From Candidatus Altiarchaeota archaeon (GTDB taxonomy: Archaea > Altiarchaeota > Altiarchaeia > IMC4 > SCGC-AAA252-I15), in the NCBI GenBank assembly GCA_043813075.1, contig JBDRLL010000012.1, forward strand, positions 1-57,532: a stretch of 57,532 nt of DNA, given 5' to 3'. Positions 37,107 to 54,300 of this stretch are shown piece after piece. The notes beneath the pieces were generated by a model. The model ran no database searches. It was not told the DNA's origin and worked only from the letters and a program-made list of their open reading frames with translations. How positions within the stretch are numbered: position 1 is the stretch's first letter; the number at the start of each line of letters is the position of its first letter. The position numbers and the translations under genes are program-made.

Positions 37107-37889
37107 ATGGATTTGATTGTCTTAAAGCTTGGGGGGAGTGTCATAACACGGAAAAGTGACGACGTTCTCGAGGTAAACGAGGATAATCTAAGGCGGCTTT
37201 CAAACGAGATTGCGGAAGCCATGTCAGAAAAACAGTTCCGATTGTTCATAGTGCATGGCGCAGGACCATTCGGGCATGTTCTAGCGAAAGAGTACCGCCT
37301 CTCTGACAGTCATAAGGACGCCCGGCAGATTAAGGGTTTCTCACTCACACACCAGAGCATGGAGGCTCTGAACTCCATGGTTGTAGCAACACTCCTTGAG
37401 GCAGGTCTGAATGCAGTATCCTATCAGCCTTCTGCAGCTGGCGTCCTTAAGTCAGGGAGGATTGATTCAATGGATTTGAAGCCTTTGAAGGGAATGATTG
37501 ATTTGGGCTTAATCCCAGTGGGCTATGGAGATGTGCTGGTTGACGAGGATGATGGCCTGAACATACTGTCAGGGGATCATCTCGTCCCACATGTTGCGTT
37601 AGGCCTCAAAGCATCTAGGGTCATCATCATCACCGACTATAATGGGGTGTTCGCCGGCGATCCTGGGGGCTCTGAGAAACTGGATGAAATAACAAGGGAG
37701 AACGTGGACATTCTTGACGGCCGTAAGACGTCCGGGACCGATGTTACGGGTGGCATAAGGGGGAAGGTGATGGAGTTGCTTGACTTGGCTGACGAGGGTG
37801 TTGAGTCTGAGATAATAAGCGGTAATGAAAAGGACTACCTGAAGATGGCTTTATTGGGTGAGAGGGGCCTTGGTACCATAGTTAAGTGA
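37107..37889 (+). CDS. ipk: Isopentenyl phosphate kinase
   Basis: LKLGGSVIT, VHGAGPFGH (IPK His), GDV, ILSGD, DVTGG...K. Confidence 0.93.
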   Translation: MDLIVLKLGGSVITRKSDDVLEVNEDNLRRLSNEIAEAMSEKQFRLFIVHGAGPFGHVLAKEYRLSDSHKDARQIKGFSLTHQSMEALNSMVVATLLEAGLNAVSYQPSAAGVLKSGRIDSMDLKPLKGMIDLGLIPVGYGDVLVDEDDGLNILSGDHLVPHVALGLKASRVIIITDYNGVFAGDPGGSEKLDEITRENVDILDGRKTSGTDVTGGIRGKVMELLDLADEGVESEIISGNEKDYLKMALLGERGLGTIVK

Positions 37890-37890
37890 A

Positions 37891-38304
37891 ATGGCGTTGA
37901 AGTGTGAAGGCTGCCGGTTGAGGGGTGTTTGTTCGAGCTCTAGGGCATCCTGGGTGTTCTTCCTGATAGGTGTTGTCGCAACGGTTGCGATGCGTGTTAT
38001 AGAGCCTTTACGGTCTATCGACCAGTCTTACGGCAAGATTTCATGGTACGTGGGTGTTATTGGTTTCTTCCTGTTTTTCGTCTACAAGTACAGGGTCTTA
38101 AGGGAGAAGTCTAGGATAATCCGGGATTCTAACCTTATGGGGAGGCTATCGTCCAGGGAGGGGTTGTCGGAGAGCGACTACCCCCTTCTAATGGAATTGG
38201 TCTGCAGCCAGGACAACTGGAAGGAGCGCACCAATTTCATGGTCATATTCATTCTTTCTGCAGTAGCACTGGTTTTTGCGTTATGGCTTGACTTAAGCTC
38301 TTGA
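37891..38304 (+). CDS. Small three-TM membrane protein
   Basis: N-terminal CxxC, three hydrophobic helices. Confidence 0.72.
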   Translation: MALKCEGCRLRGVCSSSRASWVFFLIGVVATVAMRVIEPLRSIDQSYGKISWYVGVIGFFLFFVYKYRVLREKSRIIRDSNLMGRLSSREGLSESDYPLLMELVCSQDNWKERTNFMVIFILSAVALVFALWLDLSS

Positions 38305-40013: not shown

Positions 40014-41147
40014 ATGGTATTGATGGATACCCTCGAGAAAGTCAGGATACTTGGCGAAGCCGGCAAATGGGATACTTGCGCGAGCAGCGCCTCACCACGG
40101 AAAGTCACGACTAGCGACCGTATAGGCGACGCATCGTCCTGCGGGATATGCCATTCATTCACTGAAGATGGCCGTTGCGTCTCCCTCTTCAAGACGCTGT
40201 TGACAAACGACTGCAGCTACGACTGCAAATACTGCCAGAACTCTGTCCACTGCAGTAAAAACAAGGTTTCATACGAGCCTGACGAACTGGCTAGAGTATT
40301 CATGCACCTTTATCTCGGCAACTACGTTGAAGGCCTATTCCTGTCTTCCGGCATATCCGGGGACCCTGACGTGACGATGGAGAGGATGCTGGATACGGTA
40401 CGCTTGATAAGGGGGGAGTATATGTTCCAGGGATACGTTCACTTCAAGATACTGCCTGGCTGCAGCAGGGAGATGATAAGGCAGGCCGGGGAGATGGCTG
40501 ACCGGCTTTCCATAAACATAGAGGTCCCCAGCAAGAGTCGTATGGCGGAGATAAGCGATGTTAAGGACTATCGTATCGACATACTGCGCCGTCAGAAGTG
40601 GGTTAGTCGTGAGAATACTCCGTCAGGCCAGACTACGCAGATGGTTGTCGGCGGATGCGGTGAGACAGACCGTGAGATACTTGGAATGGCTGGATGGGAG
40701 TACGATAAGATGCGCCTCAGGAGGGTGTACTATAGTGCGTTCACCCCCATCGAGCTGACACCGTTCGAATACAAGAGCAAGACCCCGCTGGAGCGGGAGC
40801 ACCGACTCTATCAAGTCGATTTTATGATGCGGAAATATGGGATAGGGTTAAGGGAGTTCAGGGAAGTCTTTGAGGACGGGAACCTGCCGAGGGGAGACCC
40901 GAAAGTGCATCTCGCTAGGATAACCCTAGACGGGCATGTGGACGTCAACGAGGCTTCATACAACGAGTTGGTCAGGGTGCCTGGCATAGGGCCCAAGAGT
41001 GCCGTTAGGATACTCCAGTTGAGGAAGAATAATCGGGGCATAACCAGTAGACGGCAGTTGGATTCCATTGGTGTTGTTTTGAAGCGGGCTGAGCCTTTCC
41101 TGAAGGTCGGCGGCCATGTGCAGGCGAGGATGAGCGAGTATGCGTAG
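40014..41147 (+). CDS. Putative DNA modification/repair radical SAM protein with HhH (TIGR03916-like)
   Basis: GICHSFTEDGRCVSL, CSYDCKYC, EGLFLSSG, ADRLS.NIE, GQTTQM, REHRLYQ.D, RVPGIG. Confidence 0.93.
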   Translation: MVLMDTLEKVRILGEAGKWDTCASSASPRKVTTSDRIGDASSCGICHSFTEDGRCVSLFKTLLTNDCSYDCKYCQNSVHCSKNKVSYEPDELARVFMHLYLGNYVEGLFLSSGISGDPDVTMERMLDTVRLIRGEYMFQGYVHFKILPGCSREMIRQAGEMADRLSINIEVPSKSRMAEISDVKDYRIDILRRQKWVSRENTPSGQTTQMVVGGCGETDREILGMAGWEYDKMRLRRVYYSAFTPIELTPFEYKSKTPLEREHRLYQVDFMMRKYGIGLREFREVFEDGNLPRGDPKVHLARITLDGHVDVNEASYNELVRVPGIGPKSAVRILQLRKNNRGITSRRQLDSIGVVLKRAEPFLKVGGHVQARMSEYA

Positions 41148-41745
41148 GATGTTTAACCTGGCTTGCAGGCACAGGGATTTCGACAGGCAGCTGTATGAAA
41201 AGGTTTTGGGGCAGGATAGGGCGCTGGTGGAGAACTGCGCTACGCCGGAGGCAAGGAGGCTTTACCTGATGCAGCGTAGCGTATCCAGGTGCTTTCACCT
41301 GAAGAGGAGTTTCATGAGGCTTAACTTATCCCCGAAGGGGATACTATACGCGAAGACTAGGCTAGAGCACAACGTCATCGACATGATTCTGGAGCACTTC
41401 CAGAATAGATTCCCCACATTCCAGATAGCAATAGAGTGGGAGGATATGGGGAAGACCTACGTCATAGACAGCAGTGGGGGGATACGCTCCTACAATACTG
41501 GGGTTGAGTCTGTTGTCGAGGCTATCGGAGAAAACATGGAGGAAAACCCGGTACTTGAGGGATTATGCTTTGACGGACAAGTATGGGGGGACTACTACAA
41601 CTCACAATACATCCCGGAACGGAGGAACACCAGGCTGATGAAGAAGATGATGCCGTTAAAATACCGCGACAAGCATATACTGGAGAACAGGAATAACCCG
41701 GAATTTCACAGGATAACAGACTATTCTAAACGCCCGCAACCGTGA
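41140..41745 (+). CDS. DUF4130 domain protein (TIGR03915-like)
   Basis: H..+.F.R, HNV......HF..RF, W..YY......ERRN..LM...MP.KY; overlaps the radical SAM gene. Confidence 0.85.
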   Translation: MRRMFNLACRHRDFDRQLYEKVLGQDRALVENCATPEARRLYLMQRSVSRCFHLKRSFMRLNLSPKGILYAKTRLEHNVIDMILEHFQNRFPTFQIAIEWEDMGKTYVIDSSGGIRSYNTGVESVVEAIGENMEENPVLEGLCFDGQVWGDYYNSQYIPERRNTRLMKKMMPLKYRDKHILENRNNPEFHRITDYSKRPQP

Positions 41746-41812
41746 CAGACAAACCCCTCCTGAAGATTTATTAAACACCATTAATATTATTAGACAACTG
41801 TAGGTGGATAAT

Positions 41813-43135
41813 ATGCGTGAATTCATCGATAAACTCGATAGAGAAGGAAAATTAATCAAAATAGACAAGGAAGTCGATACAAAATACGAAATCGCGGCAA
41901 TATTAAAGAAGGCGGAGGGGAATGCTGTAAAATTCTCTAATGTTAAAGGTCATAATATCAGTGTCGTTGGTGGTGTCGGGAGTTCCAGGGAGTTAATAGC
42001 AAAATCCCTTGGAATCGAACAAAAAAATCTTCTCTTCAGGATAGCGGATGCGATAAAGAATCCTAAAAAACCAGAGGTCATGGAAAAACCACCCTGCCAG
42101 GAAATCGTATGGAAGGGAAAGGATGCCGACTTAACGAGGATACCATTATTAACCCATTATGAAAAGGATGGTGGACCGTACATAAGCTCTGGTGTCGTAG
42201 CAGTCAGTAATGAAAAGTGGGGTAGGAATATTGCCACACACAGGATGATGATGTATGGCCCAAAAAACAAGCTTGTTGTACGTATCTGTGCTAGAGACAC
42301 GATGGAGTATCTCAAGGATTCGGGTGGTGAGATGGATGCTACATTAGTCATCGGCGTACACCCTGCAGTACAAATCGCGTCTGCGACAAGGACAAAGATA
42401 GATTTCGATGAGATGGGGATAGCCAATGCTCTTGTGGAAACACCTACCGCAAAATCCCTGACAAATAACATCGAAATCCCTGCTAATGCGGAGATAGTGT
42501 TAGAAGGGAGGATAAGCTCTGAGGAAAGGGTTGGTGAAGGCCCGTTTGTTGATATCACTGGGACATATGATTTCCCTAAGAGGCAGGAGCCGGTCTTCAC
42601 AGTGGATACCATATCCATGAGGAAAAACGCCTTGTATCACGCACTATTGCCTGGATTCGCGGAACACAGGCTCTATATGGGGATGCCTAGAGAGCCGACA
42701 ATATTCACTGAAGTGAACAAGGTATGTGAATGCAAGAATGTGGTTCTAACGCCAGGAGGATGCGGTTGGCTGCATGGGATAGTCCAGATACGGAAGAAAA
42801 ACCCTGATGATGGTATGAAAGCCATCGAAGCATCGTTTAAAGGTCATTCGAGTCTGAAGCATGTTGTGGTAATAGAGGAAGACATAGACATTTATGATAG
42901 AAATGATTTGGAATGGGCTATTGCAACCAGATTTCAGGCGAGTAAAAACGCTGTCATAAAGGAGGCTCCCGGCTCCAGTGTGGATCCCAGTGGCGAGCCT
43001 GTTCCCGGCTCAGACCGGCAGAAGACGACGAGAGTGGGTATTGACGCTACCATGCCGAGTGACAGAGAGAAAAAAGATTTCATGAGGCCATACATACCTA
43101 ATGAAGAAAAAATTAGTCTAGAAGATTATAGTTAA
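41813..43135 (+). CDS. UbiD-family decarboxylase, probable trans-anhydromevalonate 5-phosphate decarboxylase (AMPD)
   Basis: DGGPYI, HR, EIVLEG, EGPFVDITGTYD, EWAIATRFQ; directly upstream of the AcnX pair. Confidence 0.88.
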   Translation: MREFIDKLDREGKLIKIDKEVDTKYEIAAILKKAEGNAVKFSNVKGHNISVVGGVGSSRELIAKSLGIEQKNLLFRIADAIKNPKKPEVMEKPPCQEIVWKGKDADLTRIPLLTHYEKDGGPYISSGVVAVSNEKWGRNIATHRMMMYGPKNKLVVRICARDTMEYLKDSGGEMDATLVIGVHPAVQIASATRTKIDFDEMGIANALVETPTAKSLTNNIEIPANAEIVLEGRISSEERVGEGPFVDITGTYDFPKRQEPVFTVDTISMRKNALYHALLPGFAEHRLYMGMPREPTIFTEVNKVCECKNVVLTPGGCGWLHGIVQIRKKNPDDGMKAIEASFKGHSSLKHVVVIEEDIDIYDRNDLEWAIATRFQASKNAVIKEAPGSSVDPSGEPVPGSDRQKTTRVGIDATMPSDREKKDFMRPYIPNEEKISLEDYS

Positions 43136-43178: not shown

Positions 43179-44378
43179 ATGTTTCTCACTAATGAAGAGG
43201 AAGAGATTCTGGATGGAGAACACGGGAATGCTGCTGCAAAGAGCATGAAGATACTCGTTGCCTTAGGAGAGATATACAGTGCAGATAGTCTGATCCCTGT
43301 TTCAAGCGTGCAGATAGCTGGTGTATCCTACGCTAACCTTGGTGATGCTGGACTGGATTACCTTGCTGAACTCGCCAAGGACGGTGAAGTCAGCGTGTTG
43401 ACCACGCTTAATCCCGCGGGCATGGACATGCAGGATTGGAGGAAGCTAGGGATATCAGATGAGTTCGCTGAGAAACAGAAGAAAGTCATCGAAGCGTTCG
43501 CGAGGATGGGTGTCGTGACGACGTGCACGTGCACTCCATACTTGATAGGCAACCTCCCGTCGTTCGGGGAGCATGTGGCGTGGGCGGAGTCGTCTGCAGT
43601 CACGTTCGTGAATTCTGTCATAGGCGCGCGCTCGAACAGGGAGGGAGGCCCGTCAGCCATCGCATCCGCGATGATAGGAAAAACCCCGGCATACGGGCTG
43701 CACCTGGACGAGAATAGGGTGCCTAAAGTGCATTTCAATGTTAAGGCGAAGGTGGAGTCGCTCGCAGACTACGGCGCACTAGGCTATGCGCTTGGAAAAC
43801 AGAGCGAAAAAAGAGTGCCATACATAACCGGCCTCCCGCCGTCGAACACCGACTACTTGAAGAGCTTCGGCGCGTCATTCATCACCTATGGGGGCCCGCC
43901 ATTATACCATATTAAAGGAGTCACACCGGAGGCTGGCTTGCATAAGAAGCCTAAGGATTCTGTCACGATAACGCAGGATGACTTGGATGATGCATACAAG
44001 TCTTTGAATGATGATGCAGGTGACGTCGACTTCGTATCCCTGGGCTGCCCGCACGCGAGCATCAAGGAGATAGCGGAGATAGCAGAGTTTCTGAAGGGTA
44101 GGAAGGTGAATGATGGTGTTGAACTGTGGGTTGCCACCGCGAGGCCTACGAAGCAGATTGCCGACGAGAGAGGGTATACTAGGATAATAGAGGAGGCTGG
44201 CGGGAAGATGGCTGTGGACACGTGCATGGTTGTCGCGCCAGTCAAGGGCAGGTTCAAGACGATGGCGACAACGAGTGCGAAGGCGTGCTTCTATGCTAGG
44301 GGTAAGAACAAGTTCCAAGTGCATATCGGCGATTTTAGAAAGTGTCTGGAGACGGCGGTGAGTGGGAAATGGAGTTGA
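43179..44378 (+). CDS. Aconitase X catalytic subunit, probable phosphomevalonate dehydratase large subunit
   Basis: GVSY, TTLNP, TCTCTPY, AWAESSA, N+EGGP, GCPH, DTCMVV.P, SAKA. Confidence 0.92.
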   Translation: MFLTNEEEEILDGEHGNAAAKSMKILVALGEIYSADSLIPVSSVQIAGVSYANLGDAGLDYLAELAKDGEVSVLTTLNPAGMDMQDWRKLGISDEFAEKQKKVIEAFARMGVVTTCTCTPYLIGNLPSFGEHVAWAESSAVTFVNSVIGARSNREGGPSAIASAMIGKTPAYGLHLDENRVPKVHFNVKAKVESLADYGALGYALGKQSEKRVPYITGLPPSNTDYLKSFGASFITYGGPPLYHIKGVTPEAGLHKKPKDSVTITQDDLDDAYKSLNDDAGDVDFVSLGCPHASIKEIAEIAEFLKGRKVNDGVELWVATARPTKQIADERGYTRIIEEAGGKMAVDTCMVVAPVKGRFKTMATTSAKACFYARGKNKFQVHIGDFRKCLETAVSGKWS

Positions 44379-44752
44379 ACGGGCGGGTGATAAACAAGGG
44401 TAAGGCTAGTGGTGTGGCTCTTGTCACCGGAGACCCCATCAGTTTTTATGGTGGAGTAGACCCTGAGACGGGGGTCATAACCGACCAGGACAATAGTCTG
44501 AATGGTCAGAGCATCTCAGGGAAGATACTCGTATTCCCGTATGGTAAGGGGAGCACTGTTGCGCCATACACCATCTACCAGCTGGCGAAGAATGGCAAGG
44601 CCCCGTTGGCGATGATAAACAAGGATATAGAGACCATAGTCGCAGTTGGGTGCATAATCAGCGACATACCTGCGGTAGACCAGATAGACATATCACGGAT
44701 CAATACTGGAGATAAGGTTAGCGTAGACGGGGATAAAGTGACTGTCGGTTAG
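44369..44752 (+). CDS. Aconitase X swivel subunit (DUF126), phosphomevalonate dehydratase small subunit
   Basis: ISFYGGVDP.TG, GKILVFP.GKGSTV; overlaps the large-subunit stop. Confidence 0.92.
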   Translation: MELNGRVINKGKASGVALVTGDPISFYGGVDPETGVITDQDNSLNGQSISGKILVFPYGKGSTVAPYTIYQLAKNGKAPLAMINKDIETIVAVGCIISDIPAVDQIDISRINTGDKVSVDGDKVTVG

Positions 44753-44795: not shown

Positions 44796-46151
44796 ATGGT
44801 CAATAGAAAAGCTGTTTTTGTGCTGCTAGTAGTCTGTTTTGGATGTCTGACTGATGATAAGATAGGTGAGGTTGCTGTCACTCAGCCGGAGATGGTCAAG
44901 GTAACCGATGATTTCTCAGGAAGCAACGTCATATTAATATCAATAGATACTCTCAGGGGGGACAGGCTCGGATCCTATGGATATCCGATTAATAACAGCC
45001 CGACAATAGACGAGCTAGCTAAGGATAGTGTGATATTCTATAACGTGCTCTCAGCATCAGGTATGACCGAGCCGTCGCACAAGTCGATGTTAACTGGTAA
45101 ACTGGTTGCCACCCATAAGAACGACTTGTCTGGCTCCAAGACTCTGGCAGAGGTTTTTAAGGAGAACGGATATGCTACGGCAGCGTTCACCGACGGTGGG
45201 AAAGTGCACCCTGTTTTCGGCTTTGGGAAAGGCTTTGACCTGTATGAGGTTAGGGACATGAAACGGGTGTTCACAGGATTTGAAGACGAGTCATTCGACC
45301 ACTGGATTCACGACAACGCAGGCAACCCATTCTTCATTTTCCTGCATTATTACCACATACACTGCCCATACACGTCCCCTGAACCATATAGGAGCCAGTA
45401 TACTGCATACTACACTGACCGGGAGACGGTAGACTTACTTGAGAAATGGTGTCCTTCGAGCAGGAAAAAAACGGTCGAATACCAGGACACCATACTGGAG
45501 AGCAAGAATATGATATCCGACCTGTATGACGCGCAGATACCGGCATTCGATGAACTAGTGTTCAAAAAGATAATCGACACTGTGAAATCCGCCGGAGTCT
45601 ACAACAACACCATAATAATGGTGACGTCAGATCACGGGGAATTCCTAGGTGAAAACGATATCTTCGGCCACGGTCGCCTAGGATGGCCGGGGCTTAAGAT
45701 ACCCTGGATAATACATCTCCCAGATAACAGGGCTAGCAGATTCAATTTTCCAGCTAGTGGTATCGACTTGACACCCACCCTACTTGACTTGGTGAACCTC
45801 AGCATCCCGGATGACGTCGACGGAATAAGCCTTAAGCCCCTGATATTATTTGGTGAAAAACCTGAGAGATACTTGCGTATCGCGAACAGCAATAATGGCG
45901 AGAGATTCTTCTGCGATAGGGCTATGAAGAAGGCCATAATAATACCACGGCCGAAGGACGATAAATACAAGATTCTGGCGAGGGACAAGACGTATACGGA
46001 CGATGAGGAAGCGCCTTTTGTCCTTCAATGCCTGAACGAGACCCTGGCAATAAGGTCTAGGGATAAGGGAGTCCCATTAAGCCCTTCAACAACCCTTAGG
46101 ATAACCAAGGAGTTGAGAAAGCAGCTTAGGGATCTGGGATACCTCGATTAG
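44796..46151 (+). CDS. Sulfatase-like lipoprotein
   Basis: Lipobox-like FGC; NVILISIDTLR.D, T.PSH.S.LTG, H.PY, TSDHGE, QLRDLGY. Confidence 0.88.
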   Translation: MVNRKAVFVLLVVCFGCLTDDKIGEVAVTQPEMVKVTDDFSGSNVILISIDTLRGDRLGSYGYPINNSPTIDELAKDSVIFYNVLSASGMTEPSHKSMLTGKLVATHKNDLSGSKTLAEVFKENGYATAAFTDGGKVHPVFGFGKGFDLYEVRDMKRVFTGFEDESFDHWIHDNAGNPFFIFLHYYHIHCPYTSPEPYRSQYTAYYTDRETVDLLEKWCPSSRKKTVEYQDTILESKNMISDLYDAQIPAFDELVFKKIIDTVKSAGVYNNTIIMVTSDHGEFLGENDIFGHGRLGWPGLKIPWIIHLPDNRASRFNFPASGIDLTPTLLDLVNLSIPDDVDGISLKPLILFGEKPERYLRIANSNNGERFFCDRAMKKAIIIPRPKDDKYKILARDKTYTDDEEAPFVLQCLNETLAIRSRDKGVPLSPSTTLRITKELRKQLRDLGYLD

Positions 46152-47062
46152 TGCCGGTCTAATCTGTCACCGTCTCTTTTTGGAGGGGATTGCTGCGCAG
46201 GCCGTAGCATATCAAGTTCTCTGGCTATCATATCTGCCGTTGATTCCCGCAGTTCTTTGTCAGGGTATGACTTCAACCTAATGGGGAATGCGGCCGTAGT
46301 GCCCGAGAATAGTGGTGTGACCGGCAGGCCCTCTGAATGCATTTTTAGCATTATCTCATTGCTTACGCAGTGTCCCGGCATTATCCTAACTGGATTCTGG
46401 CTTTTAAGGTAGCCTATTGTCCTGCTCGTCACATCATCGTCATTGACAAGGTGGAAGCCGCCTATCACCGCAAATATCCTGTCGTCTCCAGCAACCTTCT
46501 TAGCGTGCTCGATCGTATTGCATATGCCCGCGTGCGCGCAACCGGAGATGACCACAAGCCCCTTTTCAGTGGTTATGGCGAGGCCTGAGTCGTCCATTAT
46601 GAAGTCGTCTGCGCCACTCCTATTTACCTGCCCCGGGACTTTTGCCTCGAAATCGTTATTCCTGGGTATTTCCCCGAGAAAGTATATGTTGTCTGATAAC
46701 CTCACAGGTTCCCGTGATGTCGTGAGCTCGAATTTTCTGCCAGCCTCCTCAAGACTCATGAAGGGGCTCACCACCCTGCCACCCCCTTTCGGTATTGTAG
46801 GTTCGAAACAATCCGGATGGCAGACTAGCCTACCCCCATTCATGTGCTCTAGTCCATAAGAGTGGTCCGCGTGCCGGTGGCTTAGCACGATGGCGTCAAC
46901 ATCATCAAGACTGACGCCAAGACGACCCGCATTCTTCTGGAAGATGTCTGACTGTCCGGCATCCATCAGAATTTTTTTATCAGCCTGCACTACTATCGAG
47001 AACCCGAATTCCCCGGGGATGCCTTCTCCCGGCCGATTGTCGTTTAAAACGCTTATTATCAT
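46148..47062 (-). CDS. Metallo-beta-lactamase fold hydrolase (MJ0448-like family)
   Basis: L.DAG, SHRHADH, DD, SGCAH.G, GGFHL, GHC. Confidence 0.9.
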   Translation of the reverse strand: MIISVLNDNRPGEGIPGEFGFSIVVQADKKILMDAGQSDIFQKNAGRLGVSLDDVDAIVLSHRHADHSYGLEHMNGGRLVCHPDCFEPTIPKGGGRVVSPFMSLEEAGRKFELTTSREPVRLSDNIYFLGEIPRNNDFEAKVPGQVNRSGADDFIMDDSGLAITTEKGLVVISGCAHAGICNTIEHAKKVAGDDRIFAVIGGFHLVNDDDVTSRTIGYLKSQNPVRIMPGHCVSNEIMLKMHSEGLPVTPLFSGTTAAFPIRLKSYPDKELRESTADMIARELDMLRPAQQSPPKRDGDRLDRH

Positions 47063-47117: not shown

Positions 47118-48050
47118 CTAGACGCCTATCCTCATCCTGTATGCTGTGAAGCCCATGTCTTCGATGGCTTCAGCCACCTTATCCTGAAGTCCCACGCCAG
47201 GAGTCAGTGCCTGCATCAATCCGCCGCGCCCGGTTCCAGTTAGTTTCGCTCCAAGAGCTCCAGCATCGCGTGCAGCATCAACAAGGGTGTCTAGTTCATC
47301 ACATGAAACGGTTATCTCCTGCAATAGGCTATGGTTCCGGTTCATGAGTCTCCCGACCTCTGTATAATCCCCGTTAACAAGAGATTCCCTTGCAGAAGTC
47401 ACAACCGCATTATATTCATTGAATATCCTCTCATATCCCACAGGATCAGCATCCTTGTTGGCGCGGACGTCAGCAACAACCTCCTTTGTGCTGGAGGTCA
47501 CGCCTGTGTTGCCCAGTACTATCTCGACCGGCTCAGGCATCCTCAACCGCTCCATAGTGTTCGGGCCGCCCTCAAGATTCTTGACGAACCATATGAGTCC
47601 GCCAAAGACTGCCGCAGTATTGTCTATCCCAGACGGTTTCCCATGGTATCCCTTCTCACCCTCGTATGCTATCTCGTTTATCCTCTCATCGTCATATCCC
47701 AGGTTGAAGTGCTCGTTTAGAGCCCTTGCGATGGCTGCGGCAGATGCTGCGGAAGCCCCAACACCAGAGGCGGCTATTAAGTTCCCTCCGAGAGTCACTT
47801 TTATCGGTGTGTCATCAACGTTTATCCCGCAGGCCGCGAATATCAGCTTGTTTGACTCCAATTGCTCCTCATACTTCTCCTTCTTGTAGCTTGGTGTCGC
47901 AGGCCTTTCGTCGACTAACTCGTATACGTTAGAATCCTCTATCTCTGCCGTAGTTACGTTACCCAAGGCGGATGCGATGGCAGGCATCCCGTAGACGACG
48001 AAATGCTCTCCGAATAGTATGGTCTTCCCGTATCCACTACCTGAACTCAT
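47118..48050 (-). CDS. mvk: Mevalonate kinase
   Basis: GKTILFGEHFVVYG, G.GASAA, E...HG.PSGIDN, GAKLTG.G.GG. Confidence 0.95.
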   Translation of the reverse strand: MSSGSGYGKTILFGEHFVVYGMPAIASALGNVTTAEIEDSNVYELVDERPATPSYKKEKYEEQLESNKLIFAACGINVDDTPIKVTLGGNLIAASGVGASAASAAAIARALNEHFNLGYDDERINEIAYEGEKGYHGKPSGIDNTAAVFGGLIWFVKNLEGGPNTMERLRMPEPVEIVLGNTGVTSSTKEVVADVRANKDADPVGYERIFNEYNAVVTSARESLVNGDYTEVGRLMNRNHSLLQEITVSCDELDTLVDAARDAGALGAKLTGTGRGGLMQALTPGVGLQDKVAEAIEDMGFTAYRMRIGV

Positions 48051-48075
48051 GATGATAAATAGTGAATAATTAATT

Positions 48076-49023
48076 TTAAATCATAACCCTTGCAGGTCCA
48101 GCAACCTTGAGCTCATCATAGCCCACGTTCAACCCACTTAACGCCTCTTTTACCCTGTCTTCTGAGTCGTTGAAAGTGAATACATACACAACCGAGCCTC
48201 CTGCCACATTCCAGAATGCGGGCACGCCTTCGGAACGCATGGACTCCACTGAACTACAAACAGCCTTCATCAAGGGTTTTATGACAGTTAGGCCGACACC
48301 CTCGAATAATCCGTGCACGGTCTTCGCTTCTGACTCCATCAGACAGAGTATGCCTTCAACATCCTCTTTCCGTGATAACTGTTTTAACTCAAGCATTCTG
48401 TCGTTAACCTGACTAATCCTTGAATGGTAATCAGGGTGCTCCACGACCTTAAGGTGCAGTTCATCTGCGGAATACCTATCATAGTCAAAGGGGCATGCGA
48501 GTATCCTCACATCACTGAAGACGCTGTCATCAAGCGCTTGATCAGTGGATATCACGCCATCCTTGTCTATGAAGTACTCGCTCAATCCCCCGTATATGCT
48601 CCTGTAGGCGGTCTCGGATATTCTTCTCGCATGATCCGAAAGTTCGGATTTGCTGAGTCCAAGTCCCAAGAGATGGTTCAATGACGATGAGACTGCAGCA
48701 GCTCCTGAGTCACTGCTGCCCGAGTATATACTATTATTCACTGACTCCACCACTACTCCAGCGTCCATGCCAGACATTGAGATGAATATTGTGGCCAGTT
48801 CATATACTCCTTTAGACCGTGGTCCTGAGGGTGTTCTGCCGTCTATAGTGAACGATGTCGTCTCTGCAAGGGATACTGTGGTTTTGGTGTTTACGCCGCC
48901 GTTGGTGCCTGTCAGAGCCAGGCTGGCGTGACTGTGCATGGAGGTCCTATTACCGTAATCTCTGAATCCTTCTGCGAATATGAGGGGTAATCCAGGGTAG
49001 GCGACTGCAGTGCAAGATTCCAC
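48076..49023 (-). CDS. GHMP protein of the diphosphomevalonate-decarboxylase superfamily, mevalonate-3-kinase-like
   Basis: AYP, SGSSDSGAA, ISETAYRSIYGG, FDYDR, AGGSVVYV match my recollection of Thermoplasmatales mevalonate 3-kinase; lacks the KYWG and DAGPN decarboxylase motifs. Confidence 0.75.
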   Translation of the reverse strand: MESCTAVAYPGLPLIFAEGFRDYGNRTSMHSHASLALTGTNGGVNTKTTVSLAETTSFTIDGRTPSGPRSKGVYELATIFISMSGMDAGVVVESVNNSIYSGSSDSGAAAVSSSLNHLLGLGLSKSELSDHARRISETAYRSIYGGLSEYFIDKDGVISTDQALDDSVFSDVRILACPFDYDRYSADELHLKVVEHPDYHSRISQVNDRMLELKQLSRKEDVEGILCLMESEAKTVHGLFEGVGLTVIKPLMKAVCSSVESMRSEGVPAFWNVAGGSVVYVFTFNDSEDRVKEALSGLNVGYDELKVAGPARVMI

Positions 49024-49053: not shown

Positions 49054-49860
49054 TCATATCAGGTTTTCCTCGTATTCCCTCTTGAGCTCGCCGATTATGG
49101 TTGTCTGGGTTATGATTCCAACAAGCTTCTCGTCGTAGTCCAGGATTGGCAGATGCCGGAAATGATACTGGCTCATCAGGTCGGCTGCATGACATATCAC
49201 TATGTCTGGCCGTATGGTTATCATGTCTGTAGACATTATGTCCGAGACTAGTGTCTTCTGTATGTCCTTCTTTTTTGCGACAACATACCGTATGATATCC
49301 CGCTCTGTTAGTATGCCCTCCACACCTTCTGTCGAGACTATTACGATGCCCCCGACCCCCCTCTTACCTGTCGATGATTTTTTCTTTAGCATGTGGTCCA
49401 ATGCCTCGTATATCGTCTTGTCTGACGTGGTTGTAACAACATCTGTCCGCATTATCTCCCCCACGGTCTTGGATGCGTGGGGGCTGTTTATCTCATAGCA
49501 TATGTCTGTTGACGTGAGTATGCCCATTATCTTTCCCTTCTTTACAACAGGCAGTCGTCTGAACTTGTTTTCAAAAAGCAGGTCTATGGCCTTGCCTAGC
49601 GTTGTATCAGGAGCCACGCTTATGACCTTTTTGGTCATTATATCGCATGATTTCAGTTCTGTAAGGTGGTTTCCCTTGTAGAGTTGGTTTACGATATCTG
49701 CCTCGGTTATTATGCCCTTCACCTTATCCTTCTCCACTATCAACACGGAACCCACGTTCTTCTTGTCCATCAGGCAGGCGATGTCGTATACGGGCGTATT
49801 GCATTCTGCAGTGTATATCTTAGAATGCATTATCTCTGAAACCTGCTTGTCAAGGATCAT
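49054..49860 (-). CDS. CBS-domain protein (two CBS pairs)
   Basis: Four repeats with GIIT..D / GILT..D and V..IM motifs. Confidence 0.93.
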   Translation of the reverse strand: MILDKQVSEIMHSKIYTAECNTPVYDIACLMDKKNVGSVLIVEKDKVKGIITEADIVNQLYKGNHLTELKSCDIMTKKVISVAPDTTLGKAIDLLFENKFRRLPVVKKGKIMGILTSTDICYEINSPHASKTVGEIMRTDVVTTTSDKTIYEALDHMLKKKSSTGKRGVGGIVIVSTEGVEGILTERDIIRYVVAKKKDIQKTLVSDIMSTDMITIRPDIVICHAADLMSQYHFRHLPILDYDEKLVGIITQTTIIGELKREYEENLI

Positions 49861-50047
49861 AATACATACTCCGTATCAATGGTTAAAAGAGCAAGGTTTA
49901 ATATAAAAACTATGTTCACATAATTGGTTAATATAATAAATTATTCGACAATATTTTAATGCTTGACATTTATGAACTAACCCCCATACCCCCTTAAAGT
50001 AGTGCGCTTTGGTTTATTAAAAAAAAAACAAGATAGTTAAAGACGAA

Positions 50048-51037
50048 ATGGACGTATATGAGATATTAAATGAAAAGAGCCAGCTCGTGGAGCCCCTACT
50101 TCTTGAATACACCCGGCAAGGAAACCCTAAAATGCAGGAAATGCTGGCACACCCCATAATGGCGGGTGGAAAGAGGATAAGGCCATGCCTCCTGCTGCTT
50201 GCGTGTGAAGCAGTCGGCGGAAACCCTAACAAGGTCCTCAAGGCAGCCGCTTCAGTGGAACTATTACACACTTTCACGCTGATACACGACGACATAATGG
50301 ACCATGACTCTGAACGACGTGGCAGGCCGACAGTGCACTCCTTATGGGGTGAGGAGATGGCCATAATAGTGGGCGACACCATGTATTCCGGGGCGTTTAA
50401 AGCCCTCGTAGAGGTGCGTAATGACGGCATCAATCCTGAGCTTGTGTTGAATGCTGTTGACGCCCTTGTCGAGGCAAACAGCAAGCTTCAGGAGGGTCAG
50501 ATACTTGATATGATGTTCGAGGAGAGGGATGTTGTTAGTGAGGAGGAGTACTTGGACATGGTTATGAAGAAGACTGGATCGCTTATAGAGGCTTCTGTTA
50601 GGATAGGTTCCATACTGGGTGGAGGAAGTGGTGAGGAGTCTTCTTGTCTCAGCACATTTGGGAGGAATACTGGCACCGCATTCCAGATCAAGGATGACTT
50701 GTTGGATATAACGGCAGACCAGAGGGAGTTGGGTAAGCCGGTTGGCAGCGACATTAGGAAGGGCAAGAAGACGTTAATCATGGTGCATGCATTGAATAAT
50801 TCAAATCCAGCACAGAGGGATATCCTCCTAAGGACTCTCGGTAATGAAGACGCCTCAGATGATGATGTTTCAGAAGTATTATGCGTAATGAATGAGACTG
50901 GTTCCATCAAGTTCGCGGAGGATAAGGTTGTGCAGCTGACTGAAGAGGGCAGGGTGGCCCTAGGGAAGCTTGATGACAGTGATGCTAGAAACTCCCTCCT
51001 GAAGATATCAGAATACCTCGTGGAAAGGAGGAATTAG
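50048..51037 (+). CDS. idsA: Geranylgeranyl diphosphate synthase (trans-prenyltransferase)
   Basis: GGKRIRP, FARM FTLIHDDIMD..RRG, GQ..D, KT, SARM FQIKDDLLD. Confidence 0.93.
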   Translation: MDVYEILNEKSQLVEPLLLEYTRQGNPKMQEMLAHPIMAGGKRIRPCLLLLACEAVGGNPNKVLKAAASVELLHTFTLIHDDIMDHDSERRGRPTVHSLWGEEMAIIVGDTMYSGAFKALVEVRNDGINPELVLNAVDALVEANSKLQEGQILDMMFEERDVVSEEEYLDMVMKKTGSLIEASVRIGSILGGGSGEESSCLSTFGRNTGTAFQIKDDLLDITADQRELGKPVGSDIRKGKKTLIMVHALNNSNPAQRDILLRTLGNEDASDDDVSEVLCVMNETGSIKFAEDKVVQLTEEGRVALGKLDDSDARNSLLKISEYLVERRN

Positions 51038-52024
51038 ATGATTAACTCCAGAAAGATAGACCATCTGAGGATATGTGTGGAAGAGGATGTTGAGGCAGGT
51101 GACGCGGGTTTCAGCTCCGTAAATCTTGTCCATAAGGCACTCCCTGAACTGGATTATGATGAGATAGACACAAGAATTCAACTACTGGGCAAGAAGCTGG
51201 GTTTTCCGCTTATCATTGAATCCATGACTGGAGGCACGAAAGAGTCAGAGTCAATAAACAAGGATTTGGCGTTAATAGCCCAGGAGTACGGCATTGGAAT
51301 GGGTTTGGGCAGCCAGAGGGCGGCCATTGAAGACAAGCAGTTGTCTGCGACATATACGGTGAGGGATGTCGCCCCAGACATACTTTTAATCGCTAATCTG
51401 GGTGCCGTCCAGCTAAACCATGAATACTCTGAAAAAGAATGCATGAAAGCCATTGACATGGTAAACGCTGATGCTATCGCACTACACATAAACCCTCTTC
51501 AGGAGATAATACAACCAGAGGGTGATAGGAACTTCAAGGGCCTTATATCAAAGATAAACTCGGTGAAAAAATCATTGAAAAAACCGGTTATACTGAAGGG
51601 TGTTGGAGAGGGGATAAGCCTTGATACCGCCTCTAGAATCACTGTGGATGCTTTCGATGTTGGAGGTGTTGGTGGCACATCATGGAGTCTGGTCGAAAGC
51701 CATAGATTGAATGGTCTTGAAAGTGAGATAGGGATGACGTTCGCCGGATGGGGCATCCCGACTGTCGAGTGCGTTAGGGAATTGAGGAATCTTAAAAAAC
51801 CGCTTATCGCGTCAGGGGGAGTAAGGAGCGGACTTGACGCCGCCAAGGCAATTGCTGTAGGCGCCGATGCGGTGGGCGTTGCCCTTCCGCTTCTAAGGGC
51901 ATACAACAAGCAGGGTCTTGACGGATTGAGGAATTACTTGGACAAGTTTATCTCAGAGTTTAAGGCAGCCATGTTTTTAACCGGATGCATTGACGTGAGG
52001 GCGTTAAAAGGGATTTCTGAGTAG
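51038..52024 (+). CDS. fni: Type 2 isopentenyl-diphosphate delta-isomerase
   Basis: RK.DH, SMTGG, GSQR, ANLG, H.N..QE..QPEGD, GGTSW, SGG.R.G. Confidence 0.96.
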   Translation: MINSRKIDHLRICVEEDVEAGDAGFSSVNLVHKALPELDYDEIDTRIQLLGKKLGFPLIIESMTGGTKESESINKDLALIAQEYGIGMGLGSQRAAIEDKQLSATYTVRDVAPDILLIANLGAVQLNHEYSEKECMKAIDMVNADAIALHINPLQEIIQPEGDRNFKGLISKINSVKKSLKKPVILKGVGEGISLDTASRITVDAFDVGGVGGTSWSLVESHRLNGLESEIGMTFAGWGIPTVECVRELRNLKKPLIASGGVRSGLDAAKAIAVGADAVGVALPLLRAYNKQGLDGLRNYLDKFISEFKAAMFLTGCIDVRALKGISE

Positions 52025-52920: not shown

Positions 52921-54300
52921 CTAGGAAATGCCATTATCAGGAATCTTATTTGTGATGTTGTTTGAGACATACCTAATAAAAGCGTCAGCAGTCTCGGAAA
53001 ACTCTATCCTAGACCGTATTCCAGCCATTCTCCTCAGGATATAACTTGGCCGATAGTAGAATCTCCTATGGGCTTCCAAGTCCACCTCGTATAGTTCACT
53101 GAATGAAAGGCCTTTTGGCACATAATAAAGGTCTTTTACCATTCCGGACATGTAGTCCCTCCACAAATCGTCTGTGGCATATCCCTCAGATAAGGCAGTC
53201 TTGAATAACCGTGTGCCCGGCATTAACTCTGGTAGGCTGAACACCCCATATTCAGGGTCAAGTTCGATTATGAAGCGTAAGGTATCCCGCATCTGGTGAA
53301 TATTCTCGCCTGGAAAGCCGAACATCGCGGATGAGCCTGTCTTAACCCCTATCTTACGGCAATACCTGAATGCATGGCGTATCTCATCATTAGTTATCCT
53401 CTTGCCAGAGTTGAATCTAATCTCCTCGACACCCGACTCTACGCCAAAATATATGAGGAAACACCCGGAATCCTTCATCCTAGAGAGGATGTCATCATCA
53501 ACACAATCAACCCTCGTTAGGCAAGTCCATTTTAGGTTAAGTCTCTCCCGGTCCATCATGTCGCATAGCCCGTACACCCAGTCCTTGTCCAGGGTGAAGA
53601 CACTGTCTGAAAAATCCACTCTACGCACGCCATACTCGTCCCTAAGCAATCTCATTTCATCGAGAACATTTTCACCACACCTATGCCTGACGGTGCAGTG
53701 GGGGTCTGCACAGAATATGCAGTTGAAGGGACATCCCCTCGATGCCATGAGCGTCTTGAAAAGATACTTCCGCATATCCAGCAGATGCCATGCAGGATTA
53801 GGCAGCCCATCCAATCCATCAACGAAGACGGGTTCCGAATAGGTAGTTGAGCCTCCGTCGTTCAACACTAGGCCACCAACTTCGTCAAGTCCTGCATTCC
53901 CAGTTATCAAGTGCTCGCAAAGCCTCAAGAAGGCGTAATCCCCTTCGCCGCGTATCCCATATTCAACACCCATGTCTGAGACAACCTCCGGGACCTCGGT
54001 CACATGCGAACCCCCAAGCACTATCGGGATGTCAAACCGTGATTTGATCAATGCCACTATCAAATACGCTTCTGGAAGCGCGGAGGTCAGGACGTTCACA
54101 CCTATGACCCTAGGCTTCTCGCACTCGATGACTTCAAAAAGTTTTTTAGAGTCAAAACCGACGACGTCAAAATCAAGTATGCGAACGCTAAAACCATTTT
54201 TCTCTAACACCGACGCCATATACGCGAGTCCAAGTGGGCTGTAAGTCCTACCACCGAGGATTATCCTATGCGGCGGATATACTAATAGAACGTCAGACAT
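52921..54300 (-). CDS. B12-binding (class B-like) radical SAM protein
   Basis: PLGLAY, GGSHVT, GEG, SRGCPFNCIFC, GVESG. Confidence 0.93.
   Translation of the reverse strand: MSDVLLVYPPHRIILGGRTYSPLGLAYMASVLEKNGFSVRILDFDVVGFDSKKLFEVIECEKPRVIGVNVLTSALPEAYLIVALIKSRFDIPIVLGGSHVTEVPEVVSDMGVEYGIRGEGDYAFLRLCEHLITGNAGLDEVGGLVLNDGGSTTYSEPVFVDGLDGLPNPAWHLLDMRKYLFKTLMASRGCPFNCIFCADPHCTVRHRCGENVLDEMRLLRDEYGVRRVDFSDSVFTLDKDWVYGLCDMMDRERLNLKWTCLTRVDCVDDDILSRMKDSGCFLIYFGVESGVEEIRFNSGKRITNDEIRHAFRYCRKIGVKTGSSAMFGFPGENIHQMRDTLRFIIELDPEYGVFSLPELMPGTRLFKTALSEGYATDDLWRDYMSGMVKDLYYVPKGLSFSELYEVDLEAHRRFYYRPSYILRRMAGIRSRIEFSETADAFIRYVSNNITNKIPDNGIS

Follow-up and report, generated by a model that had tools for sequence, protein, structure and literature searches.

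The Candidatus Altiarchaeota gene at 48076..49023 (-) encodes a 315 aa protein, initiated at GTG, which by its sequence is a member of the mevalonate-3-kinase (M3K) clade and not a decarboxylase. It lies in a stretch of 57,532 nt (contig JBDRLL010000012.1 of assembly GCA_043813075.1), analysed as a whole and hereafter called the window, where it adjoins a mevalonate (5-)kinase gene, mvk. We refer to the product as the M3K-like kinase of an Altiarchaeal subfamily, a placement drawn from Pfam, NCBIfam, PDB, fold and tree analyses. The reading which we prefer, with somewhat better than even confidence, is that this protein is a non-decarboxylating kinase of the mevalonate 3-OH on an accessory branch, with MVK probably acting as its 5-kinase partner. 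As residues, fold and phylogeny suggest, an ATP-dependent kinase of the GHMP fold would phosphorylate (R)-mevalonate at its tertiary 3-OH, which would open an accessory branch outside the Thermoplasma-type pathway. The gene is probably cotranscribed with a CBS-domain gene and mvk, and sits in a supercluster encoding the full Aeropyrum-type lower pathway. If this enzyme-level reading holds, our favoured guess, whose chances fall a little short of even, is that MVK and the M3K-like protein together make mevalonate 3,5-bisphosphate. It counts against the preferred reading that such a branch would end in a stable phosphate ester with no known consumer and makes no obvious metabolic sense, and that the single MVK is already needed for the main pathway.

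Assignment to the M3K clade

The M3K-like protein matched the Pfam families MVD-like_N (PF22700, 65.8 bits) and M3K_C (PF21433, 61.8 bits), both with cut-offs of 27. Its best NCBIfam model was that of mevalonate-3-kinase, NF040848, which it matched over the full length with 184.8 bits, while the PMD (MvaD) model gave 101 bits against a cut-off of 475 and the DMD model TIGR01240 gave 58 bits against 171. The equivalog cut-off of NF040848 (440 bits) was missed. This cut-off is narrow, since the M3K of Oxyplasma meridianum, a member of Thermoplasmatales possessing M3PK and MBD, also misses it with 392.8 bits; other clade members scored 154 (Heimdall) and 165 bits (Micrarchaeia). In comparison with solved structures, PDB entry 4rkp was matched with an E value of 4.7e-31 and any decarboxylase structure with 5.5e-08 or weaker. 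The identity to Ta1305 of Thermoplasma acidophilum is only ~26-27%, and this value, along with the score of 185 bits against the cut-off of 440, weighs against the preferred reading. An AF2 model of the protein had a pLDDT of 96.8, and its top four fold matches were chains of the Ta M3K (4rkz/4rkp), with a TM score of 0.91 and rmsd of 2.0-2.4 Å.

In the phylogenetic tree the M3K clade was recovered with 100/100 support, set apart from MBD and DMD, and the protein grouped within it and not with the decarboxylases; a quick tree of 70 rows points the same way. It fell within an Altiarchaeal subclade (100/99) which is separate from, and not nested in, the Thermoplasmatota subclade; the latter is represented by Oxyplasma and 17 other Thermoplasmatota sequences, which stand in for the characterised Ta1305 and PTO1356, absent from the tree. 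The order of the M3K subclades has a support of only 88/81, which bears on the suggestion that the protein preserves an ancestral state of M3K. The original prediction, made from the letters of the DNA alone, had taken the product for an M3K-like protein without the decarboxylase motifs, and on this point the NF040848 match, the 4rkp match, the residue columns described below, the fold and the tree all agree. The Ta1305 motifs which it had named are likewise seen in the alignment with 4rkp (AYP, SGSSD(A/S)GAA, SES/SET..RS..GG, FDYQR/FDYDR and (T/A)GGS.VYV).

The window's genome groups with Altiarchaeota. The M3K-like gene was present in 23 of the 61 genomes of this phylum, namely in 20/21 genomes of the window's own family (its own genome counted) and in 1/1 and 2/2 genomes of two others; none of the 37 genomes in the remaining six families carries it, including f6 (0/22) and f9 (0/8). 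Groupings in the gene tree match the families, and inheritance within families looks vertical from these sequences. A 2016 paper reported no M3K homologs outside Thermoplasmatales (PMC5177888); M3K homologs of Altiarchaeota are mentioned in a 2024 paper, but not the gene context described here. We did not find the coupling of the Altiarchaeal M3K-like gene to mvk in the literature searched; it may be that PMC11052028 (Figure 1b and Table S5) already lists the Thermoplasma-type genes of Altiarchaeota.

Genomic locus and its conservation in relatives

The gene mvk (47118..48050 (-), 310 aa; TIGR00549, 227 bits, cut-off 163) lies directly downstream on the same strand, with 25 nt separating its own ATG from the stop of the M3K-like gene, and encodes the sole MVK of the genome (a single tblastn match). 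On the other side, a gene for a 268 aa protein with four CBS domains (49054..49860 (-); Pfam CBS in four stretches, 187 bits) ends 30 nt before the M3K-like gene begins and is the probable first gene of a unit with the M3K-like gene and mvk. A search of sequencing runs turned up no RNA run, and two DNA runs sharing a small part of their words with this DNA. An upstream CBS gene is also found in the relatives' loci L033, L034, L039 and L043, there with an intervening HAD gene. The region 49861..50047, as read from the sequence, separates this unit from two divergently oriented genes and contains at ~49897-49909 an A/T-rich, TATA-like stretch, noticed by eye and putative only. The divergent genes encode a short-chain/GGPP prenyl diphosphate synthase (IdsA-like; 50048..51037 (+); PF00348, 257.7 bits; NF040698, 365.5 bits, under its cut-off of 468) and a type 2 IPP isomerase (IDI2; 51038..52024 (+); TIGR02151, 396.7 bits, cut-off 281).

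The window further encodes the large subunit of phosphomevalonate dehydratase (PMDh), an aconitase X protein (43179..44378 (+); PF04412, 516 bits), its small subunit with the AcnX swivel domain (44342..44752 (+); PF01989, 118 bits; NF003046, 174 bits, cut-off 163), isopentenyl phosphate kinase (IPK; 37107..37889 (+); NF040647, 235 bits, cut-off 120) and a UbiD-family decarboxylase (41804..43135 (+); TIGR00148, 352 bits, cut-off 245). Because the UbiD homolog adjoins PMDh, an adjacency also found in relatives, it is a candidate for AMPD. MVK, PMDh, UbiD and IPK were each identified once in the genome, with UbiX and HMGR encoded elsewhere in it, and the Aeropyrum-type lower pathway is complete (MVK, both PMDh subunits, a UbiD-type probable AMPD with UbiX, and IPK). 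The co-occurrence of the M3K-like gene with this pathway, which had been pointed out from the window, thus stands. A gene for an MBL-fold protein (46148..47062 (-); Pfam Lactamase_B, 35 bits) follows 55 nt downstream of mvk. MBL-fold and sulfatase genes were considered as pathway members and set aside, as neither is conserved beside the M3K-like gene; the MBL-fold gene, which had no match in the relatives' loci, is probably outside the system.

When the neighbourhood was compared across relatives, mvk directly followed the M3K-like gene on the same strand in 11/24 loci with short flanks and adjoined it in 11/18 long-flank loci. The adjacency therefore recurs, as it should if the predicted coupling is real. 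It is, however, missing in about half of the loci and could reflect a general clustering of isoprenoid genes, which weakens the preferred reading. The commonest neighbour of the M3K-like gene is not mvk but a HAD hydrolase, and a gene of the HAD/beta-phosphoglucomutase family is divergent to it in 14/24 loci. In other lineages the neighbour of the M3K-like gene is an M3PK-family kinase gene (10/11 Heimdall/Bathy and 6/7 Micrarchaeota-type loci), and one protein of 547 aa fuses the two. A homolog search for longer forms (553-2000 aa) yielded none, a result that speaks weakly against Altiarchaeal-type fusions. The idea of two adjacent kinases acting together thus gains indirect support from the M3PK-family partner in 16 of the 18 Heimdall/Bathy/Micrarchaeota loci and from the fusion. 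In Altiarchaeota the position of the M3PK-family partner is often occupied by mvk.

Catalytic and subfamily residues

Residue columns were read from an alignment of 70 rows, comprising 57 of the M3K clade (23 of them Altiarchaeal), eight of DMD and five of MBD. The decarboxylase Lys column holds K in 8/8 DMD and 5/5 MBD rows and F in 23/23 Altiarchaeal rows. At the column of the catalytic Asp, all 13 decarboxylase rows have D, and the Altiarchaeal rows have A in 21 cases, with a single S and a single gap. The protein from the window has Phe16 and Ala274 at these two columns. Its Glu137, Arg141 and Arg183 align with Glu140, Arg144 and Arg185 of Ta1305 and, together with the GSSDSG loop, are invariant in 57/57 rows of the M3K clade and in 74/74 database homologs. 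In PMC9254496 and the review PMC9961378, Glu140 is described as reading the free 5-OH, Arg144 the carboxylate and Arg185 as serving phosphotransfer. Arg185 of the Ta M3K is given there as essential (PMC9254496), and smaller residues in place of Glu140 are said to let M3K accept 5-phosphomevalonate (PMC9961378). Loss of the Asp converts DMD into a 3-kinase and leaves MBD inactive, according to PMC9254496. The claim that the Lys/Asp pair is missing, with the Glu that excludes a 5-phosphate and the product-binding Arg retained, is therefore borne out by the 70-row alignment.

The Altiarchaeal subfamily is further marked by an invariant Glu18, Thr138 and Tyr/Phe140. Thermoplasmatota and Heimdall/Bathy proteins have Gly at positions 18 and 140, and position 138 is Ser where the Altiarchaeal proteins have Thr. 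The signature Glu18/Thr138/Tyr-or-Phe140/Ala274 was found in 42/74 homologs and is absent from every other subclade. Rossoni et al. list stretches binding the 5-substituent, and substrate or catalytic regions are given at 17-21 and 139-141 (S. epidermidis numbering); Altiarchaeal positions 18 and 138 fall within these regions. Since Glu18, Thr138 and Tyr/Phe140 lie in or beside stretches binding the 5-substituent, the substrate of the subfamily could differ. The enzyme might then act on another 3-hydroxy acid or another mevalonate derivative, the M3K label reflecting family resemblance only, and the lack of M3PK and MBD to use MVA-3-P (described below) would, like the signature, fit such a change. 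Nevertheless, we consider altered specificity rather unlikely: the gene is always found among mevalonate/isoprenoid genes, the Glu for the free 5-OH, the Arg for the carboxylate and the Arg for phosphotransfer are all kept, and Glu18 would, as we infer, repel a 5-phosphate and not attract it.

Absence of the Thermoplasma-type partners and the fate of the product

A P-loop ORF adjoining MBD, picked out in the Oxyplasma genome with PF13671, led through NCBIfam to the M3PK model, NF008996; NF040847 served as the model for MBD. In the window's genome, which is 89% complete, no M3PK was found, either among eight candidates scored with NF008996 or by tblastn with the Oxyplasma M3PK. None of the 23 carrier genomes has a convincing M3PK, and only three show weak NF008996 matches (33-79 bits, cut-off 250), two in frames of ~300 aa and one in a frame of 157 aa. 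MBD gave the same picture: the window's genome has no NF040847 match and only one MVD-like paralog, and a decarboxylase paralog of the MVD family (MBD, PMD or DMD) is absent in 22/23 carriers. PMDh (AcnX), on the other hand, is present in 21/23 carriers and UbiD in 20/23. A Thermoplasma-type pathway is characterised by M3PK, by MBD and by working without MVK; here the first two are missing and MVK is adjacent. Judged from gene content, this is not a Thermoplasma-type pathway because M3PK and MBD are absent, and for this reason the M3K-like protein is placed on an accessory branch from mevalonate.

Among its options, the original prediction had proposed a parallel route, possibly oxygen-tolerant and prFMN-independent; a complete route of this kind is not supported. 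No MBD or M3PK is encoded in the genome, 22 of the 23 relatives are without an MVD-family decarboxylase, and MVA-3-P is reported to be stable, as is the bisphosphate. With MVA-3-P stable and the decarboxylase absent, the last step of such a route has no candidate. One could still suppose that an enzyme outside the MVD family converts the bisphosphate to isopentenyl phosphate or trans-anhydromevalonate 5-phosphate, with the Fe-S dehydratase, the prFMN decarboxylase or both thereby bypassed. The conservation of the gene in 23 genomes alongside IPK and MVK, the recurrence of a 5-kinase partner across the M3K clade and the conserved divergent HAD/beta-phosphoglucomutase-family gene (14/24 loci) would all sit well with this. 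But stable phosphates would require a catalyst for which MBD, PMD and DMD are lacking in nearly all carriers, the retention of PMDh and UbiD shows that a bypass is not required, and the gene-less families f6 and f9 run the same archaeal pathway. We therefore regard a full parallel route as improbable. A shade less probable again is its most specific form, in which Altiarchaeota would have a lower mevalonate pathway of a fifth kind: the M3K-like protein and MVK would make the bisphosphate, from which a non-MVD-family enzyme would produce isopentenyl phosphate or trans-anhydromevalonate 5-phosphate; candidate enzymes among the conserved neighbours would be the HAD/beta-phosphoglucomutase-family protein and PMDh itself. 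One relative (G032, a single MAG) has kept the M3K-like gene and lost both PMDh and UbiD, which argues against a role tied to these two enzymes. A role in restarting prFMN synthesis was set aside on the strength of the same single MAG.

A cryptic phosphomevalonate or mevalonate decarboxylase, in which other residues such as Glu18 replace the Asp, would fit the lack of another decarboxylase of the family in 22/23 carriers, and Glu18 is invariant, subfamily-specific and only two residues from the Lys column. This is very unlikely nonetheless, as every Asp loss tested ended decarboxylation according to PMC9254496, the tree places the protein among the kinases, and PMDh and UbiD already cover the step. 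That the protein is a catalytically inert relic or pseudoenzyme, as the lack of a known downstream enzyme might suggest, is scarcely credible given an intact frame, ATP-loop and catalytic residues invariant in 23 genomes and 74 homologs, a confidently predicted fold and vertical-looking inheritance within families.

Significance

M3K has been regarded as an acid adaptation and as what marks out the Thermoplasma-type pathway. In Altiarchaeota, a phylum not labelled as acidophilic, one family and two smaller ones related to it have conserved a distinct subfamily of M3K, without M3PK or MBD and inside a gene cluster of the archaeal pathway. This implies either a new role or fate for mevalonate 3-phosphate or 3,5-bisphosphate, or a subfamily with a new substrate. 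The finding also bears on the origin of the mevalonate pathway variants. The pairing of M3K with a 5-kinase is now seen as a fusion, as a module with M3PK and as one with MVK, and together with three downstream solutions (MBD, DMD and PMDh/UbiD). If the fifth variant were true, it would be an ATP-driven route in which the Fe-S dehydratase, the prFMN decarboxylase or both could be dispensed with.

Comparison with known systems

The M3Ks of Thermoplasmatales (Ta1305, PDB 4RKP/4RKS/4RKZ; PTO1356) resemble the Altiarchaeal protein in fold, clade, loss of the Lys/Asp pair and ATP loop. They differ in having Thr at the Asp column, where the Altiarchaeal protein has Ala, and Gly, Ser and Gly in place of Glu18, Thr138 and Tyr/Phe140. 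The Altiarchaeal host also departs from Thermoplasma-type hosts in gene content, with MVK, PMDh, UbiD and IPK present and M3PK and MBD absent, and whereas M3K is without a pathway neighbour in 19 loci of Thermoplasmatota, the Altiarchaeal gene adjoins mvk.

The M3K-like proteins of MAGs labelled as Heimdallarchaeota or Bathyarchaeia and of Micrarchaeota share the clade and the catalytic signature, save for the subfamily residues, and their genes are likewise linked to a second kinase gene. Their partner, however, is a P-loop kinase of the M3PK/2-phosphoglycerate-kinase family (in locus L051, NF008996 scored 134 bits against 123 for 2PGK). In Micrarchaeota MBD is also in the cluster in 4/7 loci. 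A DMD-type paralog lies next to MVK in all five of the Heimdall/Bathy genomes that were checked, of which one alone has AcnX.

The MVD-family decarboxylases (DMD, PMD, MBD) have the same MVD-like GHMP fold (TM 0.84-0.88) and share with the Altiarchaeal protein the carboxylate-binding Arg and the GG motif, but they possess the catalytic Asp and Lys, and Gly where it has Glu. The Aeropyrum-type pathway, finally, "does not involve DMD homologs" in the words of PMC9254496, whereas here a kinase-type DMD homolog is embedded in its gene cluster.

Identity and predicted activity of the M3K-like protein

The protein encoded at 48076-49023 on the minus strand (315 aa, GTG start) matched the MVD-like_N and M3K C-terminal domains of Pfam, each above cut-off, and its top NCBIfam model was mevalonate-3-kinase (M3K), with 184.8 bits over the full length, followed by PMD with 101 and DMD with 58. 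By sequence, the closest solved structure was Ta1305, the M3K of Thermoplasma acidophilum (E 4.7e-31; best decarboxylase 5.5e-08). An AlphaFold2 model made from 74 homologs had a pLDDT of 96.8, and its four top PDB fold matches were all Ta M3K chains (TM 0.91, rmsd 2.0-2.4 Å), decarboxylases coming next (TM 0.84-0.88). Among named sequences, the closest homologs and the phylum-mates' loci carry the label 'Candidatus Altiarchaeota/Altiarchaeales'. In a careful tree of 47 rows, rooted on six DMD-type sequences (the five scanned, all but L095, were above the TIGR01240 cut-off), the target fell within the M3K clade (36 rows, support 100/100), apart from DMD and from MBD, the sister group, as the original prediction had it. 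The Altiarchaeal sequences formed a single subclade (100/99), and a quick tree of 70 rows, with four fragments of less than 260 aa excluded, gave the same groups, while the order of the Thermoplasmatota, Heimdall/Bathy plus Micrarchaeota and Altiarchaeota subclades was not firm (88/81). Thermoplasmatota were represented in both trees by Oxyplasma and other sequences of that phylum, Ta1305 and PTO1356 (a second characterised M3K) being absent.

The claim that the target lacks the decarboxylase Lys and Asp and keeps the M3K Glu and Arg was confirmed in a 70-row alignment (23 Altiarchaeota, 34 other M3K-clade, 8 DMD and 5 MBD sequences). The Lys column, Lys in all DMD and MBD rows, holds Phe16 in the target and Phe in all 23 Altiarchaeota, Leu in 18 Thermoplasmatota, Phe in nine Heimdall/Bathy and Phe (6) or Leu (1) in Micrarchaeota-type rows. 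The catalytic Asp, likewise present in all 8 DMD and 5 MBD rows, is replaced by Ala274 (Altiarchaeota 21 Ala, one Ser, one gap; Thermoplasmatota 18 Thr; Heimdall/Bathy 9 Gly; Micrarchaeota-type 6 Gly, 1 Ala). Glu137 (Ta1305 Glu140), Arg141 (Arg144) and Arg183 (Arg185) are each invariant in the 23 Altiarchaeota and in 34/34 other M3K-clade rows; at these positions all DMD and MBD rows have Gly, all have Arg, and they vary, respectively. According to passages of PMC9254496, the DMD of S. solfataricus becomes a 3-kinase when the Asp is replaced, the same change inactivates MBD, and Arg185 is essential in Ta M3K; an excerpt of the review PMC9961378 adds that Ta M3K takes 5-phosphomevalonate once Glu140 is swapped for smaller residues. 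Because of this residue pattern and the published mutants of Asp, Glu140 and Arg185, the sequence predicts a kinase that does not decarboxylate and whose substrate is mevalonate with a free 5-OH. Caution on this prediction comes from residues specific to the subfamily, all in 23/23 rows: Glu18 (Gly in Thermoplasmatota and Heimdall/Bathy), Thr138 (Ser in others) and Tyr or Phe at position 140 (Gly in Thermoplasmatota and Heimdall/Bathy). The joint signature occurs in 42/74 database homologs and in none of the other subclades. Rossoni et al. assigned regions 17-21 and 139-141 (S. epidermidis numbering) to binding of the 5-substituent or to catalysis, and by sequence placement positions 18 and 138 of the target fall inside them. 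Taken together, the protein is probably an ATP-dependent mevalonate 3-OH kinase that does not decarboxylate.

Gene unit and neighbours in the window

As originally predicted, the M3K-like stop lies 25 nt ahead of the ATG of a mevalonate kinase gene on the same strand (mvk, 47118-48050(-), 310 aa; TIGR00549 227 bits, cut-off 163), and the M3K-like gene does occur together with MVK, PMDh, UbiD and IPK, all encoded in the window: IPK at 37107-37889, a UbiD-family decarboxylase at 41804-43135 and both PMDh subunits at 43179-44752. A gene for a four-CBS-domain protein (49054-49860(-)) ends 30 nt upstream of the M3K-like gene, and 187 bp with an A/T-rich TATA-like stretch separate it from the divergent idsA-idi2 pair (GGPP-type prenyl synthase, 50048-51037; IDI2, 51038-52024). 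Since the intergenic gaps are short, the arrangement suggests a single CBS-M3KL-mvk transcription unit with a predicted start in this divergent region.

Several other genes are interspersed here. Two genes at 44796-47062, one of the sulfatase family (+) and one for an MBL-fold protein (-), separate the PMDh small-subunit gene from mvk; this pair is unique to the window, relatives having other small genes or none at that place. Just past idi2, a B12-binding radical SAM protein (52921-54300(-)) scored best against the NCBIfam model 'lipid biosynthesis B12-binding/radical SAM protein', at 137 bits well short of the 360-bit cut-off, and may be a lipid-modifying enzyme tied to the isoprenoid cluster. 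Between the IPK and UbiD genes, a TIGR03916 radical SAM protein (361 bits) and its TIGR03915 partner (40014-41745(+)) form a putative DNA modification/repair pair within the isoprenoid supercluster. Glutamate 5-kinase (proB, 402 bits; 35966-37105(+)) ends 1 nt ahead of the IPK start, placing two amino-acid-kinase-fold genes back to back. After IPK in the window comes the gene of a small protein (37900-38295(+); about 130-145 aa) whose N-terminus is rich in Cys and precedes a hydrophobic stretch; in relatives its counterparts, 59-60% identical across genomes, lie between mvk and PMDh (L034:10161-10598, L039:8374-8787).

The gene seen most often right beside the M3K-like gene encodes an HAD-IA hydrolase assigned to the beta-phosphoglucomutase family (TIGR02009 scores of 130-140 bits, slightly under the cut-off of 153). 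It lies divergent to the M3K-like gene in 14/24 phylum loci (L006, L010, L011, L013-L019, L021, L023, L025, L032), a same-genus relative among them, and is also recorded for L033, L034, L037, L039, L041-L043, L047 and L049. The window's M3K-like gene has no such neighbour; the best ortholog, with 40-43% identity, is elsewhere in the genome (C20:30654-31307; locus L129:4649-5320), closing a series of ubiX, HD-phosphohydrolase-like and HAD genes whose starts and stops overlap. Possible roles of the HAD protein are provision of dimethylallyl phosphate for prFMN or participation in the M3K system.

Pathway genes in the genome and the phylum

The window corresponds to contig C12 of an assembly of 1.80 Mb (89% complete) with one MVD-like paralog, one copy each of MVK, PMDh, UbiD and IPK by tblastn, and UbiX and HMGR. 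Neither of the further enzymes that the original prediction had pointed to, M3PK (NF008996) and MBD (NF040847), was matched in this genome.

Scanning 61 genomes of the phylum (M3K-like call at E 1.1e-37 or better) gave 23 carriers: 20/21 in the window's family, its own genome included, 1/1 in f2 and 2/2 in f5. The gene was absent from the other six families (0/37: f6 0/22, f9 0/8, f8 0/4, and f3, f4 and f7 0/1 each). One carrier, G044, has two copies. No decarboxylase paralog was found in 22/23 carriers, the exception being G032. AcnX is encoded in 21/23 (not in G032 and G034) and UbiD in 20/23 (not in G032, G034 and G044). NF008996 matched in only 3/23, where scores of 33-79 bits fell short of the 250-bit cut-off and the matched frames measured about 300 aa in two cases and 157 aa in the third. 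The highest score in the whole phylum was 103 bits, likewise below cut-off, and f9, a family without the M3K-like gene, accounts for 6 of the 11 genomes with matches. As the MAGs are 57-93% complete, lone gene absences carry little weight; unlike these, the absence pattern over 23 genomes does mean something.

In G032 (loci L024 and L091), of the window's family and 91% complete, the M3K-like gene lies beside a GGPP synthase gene. Because a DMD-type decarboxylase is present (TIGR01240 339 bits) and AcnX and UbiD have no match, a DMD route appears to have replaced the archaeal lower pathway in this genome, which retained the M3K-like gene. Weak M3K-like matches in the four f8 genomes were rejected as DMD-type enzymes; these genomes (G001-G004, same class; loci L092-L095) have the DMD-type enzyme in 4/4 (TIGR01240 261 bits in L092) and AcnX in 0/4. 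The phylum therefore contains no fewer than three distinct versions of the lower mevalonate pathway.

Synteny and the partner kinase

Adjacency to mvk recurs, in line with the original prediction: it is directly downstream in 11/24 phylum-scan loci (1.5 kb flanks), which share genomes with the named loci compared here with flanks up to 8 kb. Among 18 named Altiarchaeal loci the usual order is idi2-idsA / (CBS) / HAD / M3KL-mvk / PMDhS-PMDhL-UbiD(-IPK); mvk is downstream on the same strand in 11/18 and directly next in 9/18, and M3PK or MBD occurs in 0/18. The adjacent kinase in Altiarchaeota is thus MVK. An M3PK/2-phosphoglycerate-kinase-family gene lies directly upstream of the M3K-like gene in 10 of 11 Heimdall/Bathy-labelled loci (L051-L053, L055, L056, L058, L059, L067, L085, L086); as the Heimdall kinase scores 134 bits with the M3PK model versus 123 with 2PGK, we label it no further than M3PK-family. 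A kinase of the same family is adjacent in six of seven Micrarchaeota-type loci, four of which have MBD, and the M3K gene has no pathway neighbours in 19 Thermoplasmatota loci. Five Heimdall/Bathy genomes (G062-G066) each carry two MVD paralogs, the M3K-like one and one beside MVK (DMD-type in L121, the sole one scanned); no MBD-type gene was seen in these five, and one has AcnX. An apparent natural M3P 5-kinase/M3K fusion, protein P0112 (547 aa), combines an NF008996 domain (213 bits, residues 8-201) with an NF040848 domain (369 bits, residues 220-545); it occurs once, on one contig of 21,960 bp, and may be an assembly or gene-calling artefact. In lineages other than Thermoplasmatales and Micrarchaeota, M3K-like genes thus usually have a partner kinase and are not accompanied by a dedicated MBD.

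Function and comparison with known systems

A Thermoplasma-type pathway was rejected, M3PK and MBD having no match in the window's genome and MVK being present. The original prediction had also proposed a parallel route through mevalonate 3,5-bisphosphate made by two kinases; the recurrent 5-kinase link speaks for the kinase pair, while nothing in the evidence shows a full alternative route. Because this link recurs, our best guess, a tentative one even if the enzyme-level reading is granted, is a two-kinase module in which the M3K-like protein and the 5-kinase would together make mevalonate 3,5-bisphosphate. Mevalonate 3-phosphate and the 3,5-bisphosphate are both reported stable in an excerpt of PMC9961378, and no consumer of either was identified.

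The part of Vinokur 2016 consulted (PMC5177888) states that M3K homologs were not found outside Thermoplasmatales, and that of Hoshino and Gaucher 2018 (PMC6107057) gives Thermoplasmata and a few Micrarchaeota as the only lineages with M3K and MBD. A 2024 paper (PMC11052028) that mentions M3K homologs in Altiarchaeota names the phylum once, among the lineages of its trees; the mvk coupling, the absence of M3PK and MBD in Altiarchaeota and the subfamily residues go unmentioned in the text consulted, and its figure and supplementary tables may show gene presence or absence. The literature searched gave no further account of the Altiarchaeal gene. What is new here, against these known systems, is a distinct, conserved M3K subfamily located in an archaeal-type pathway cluster.
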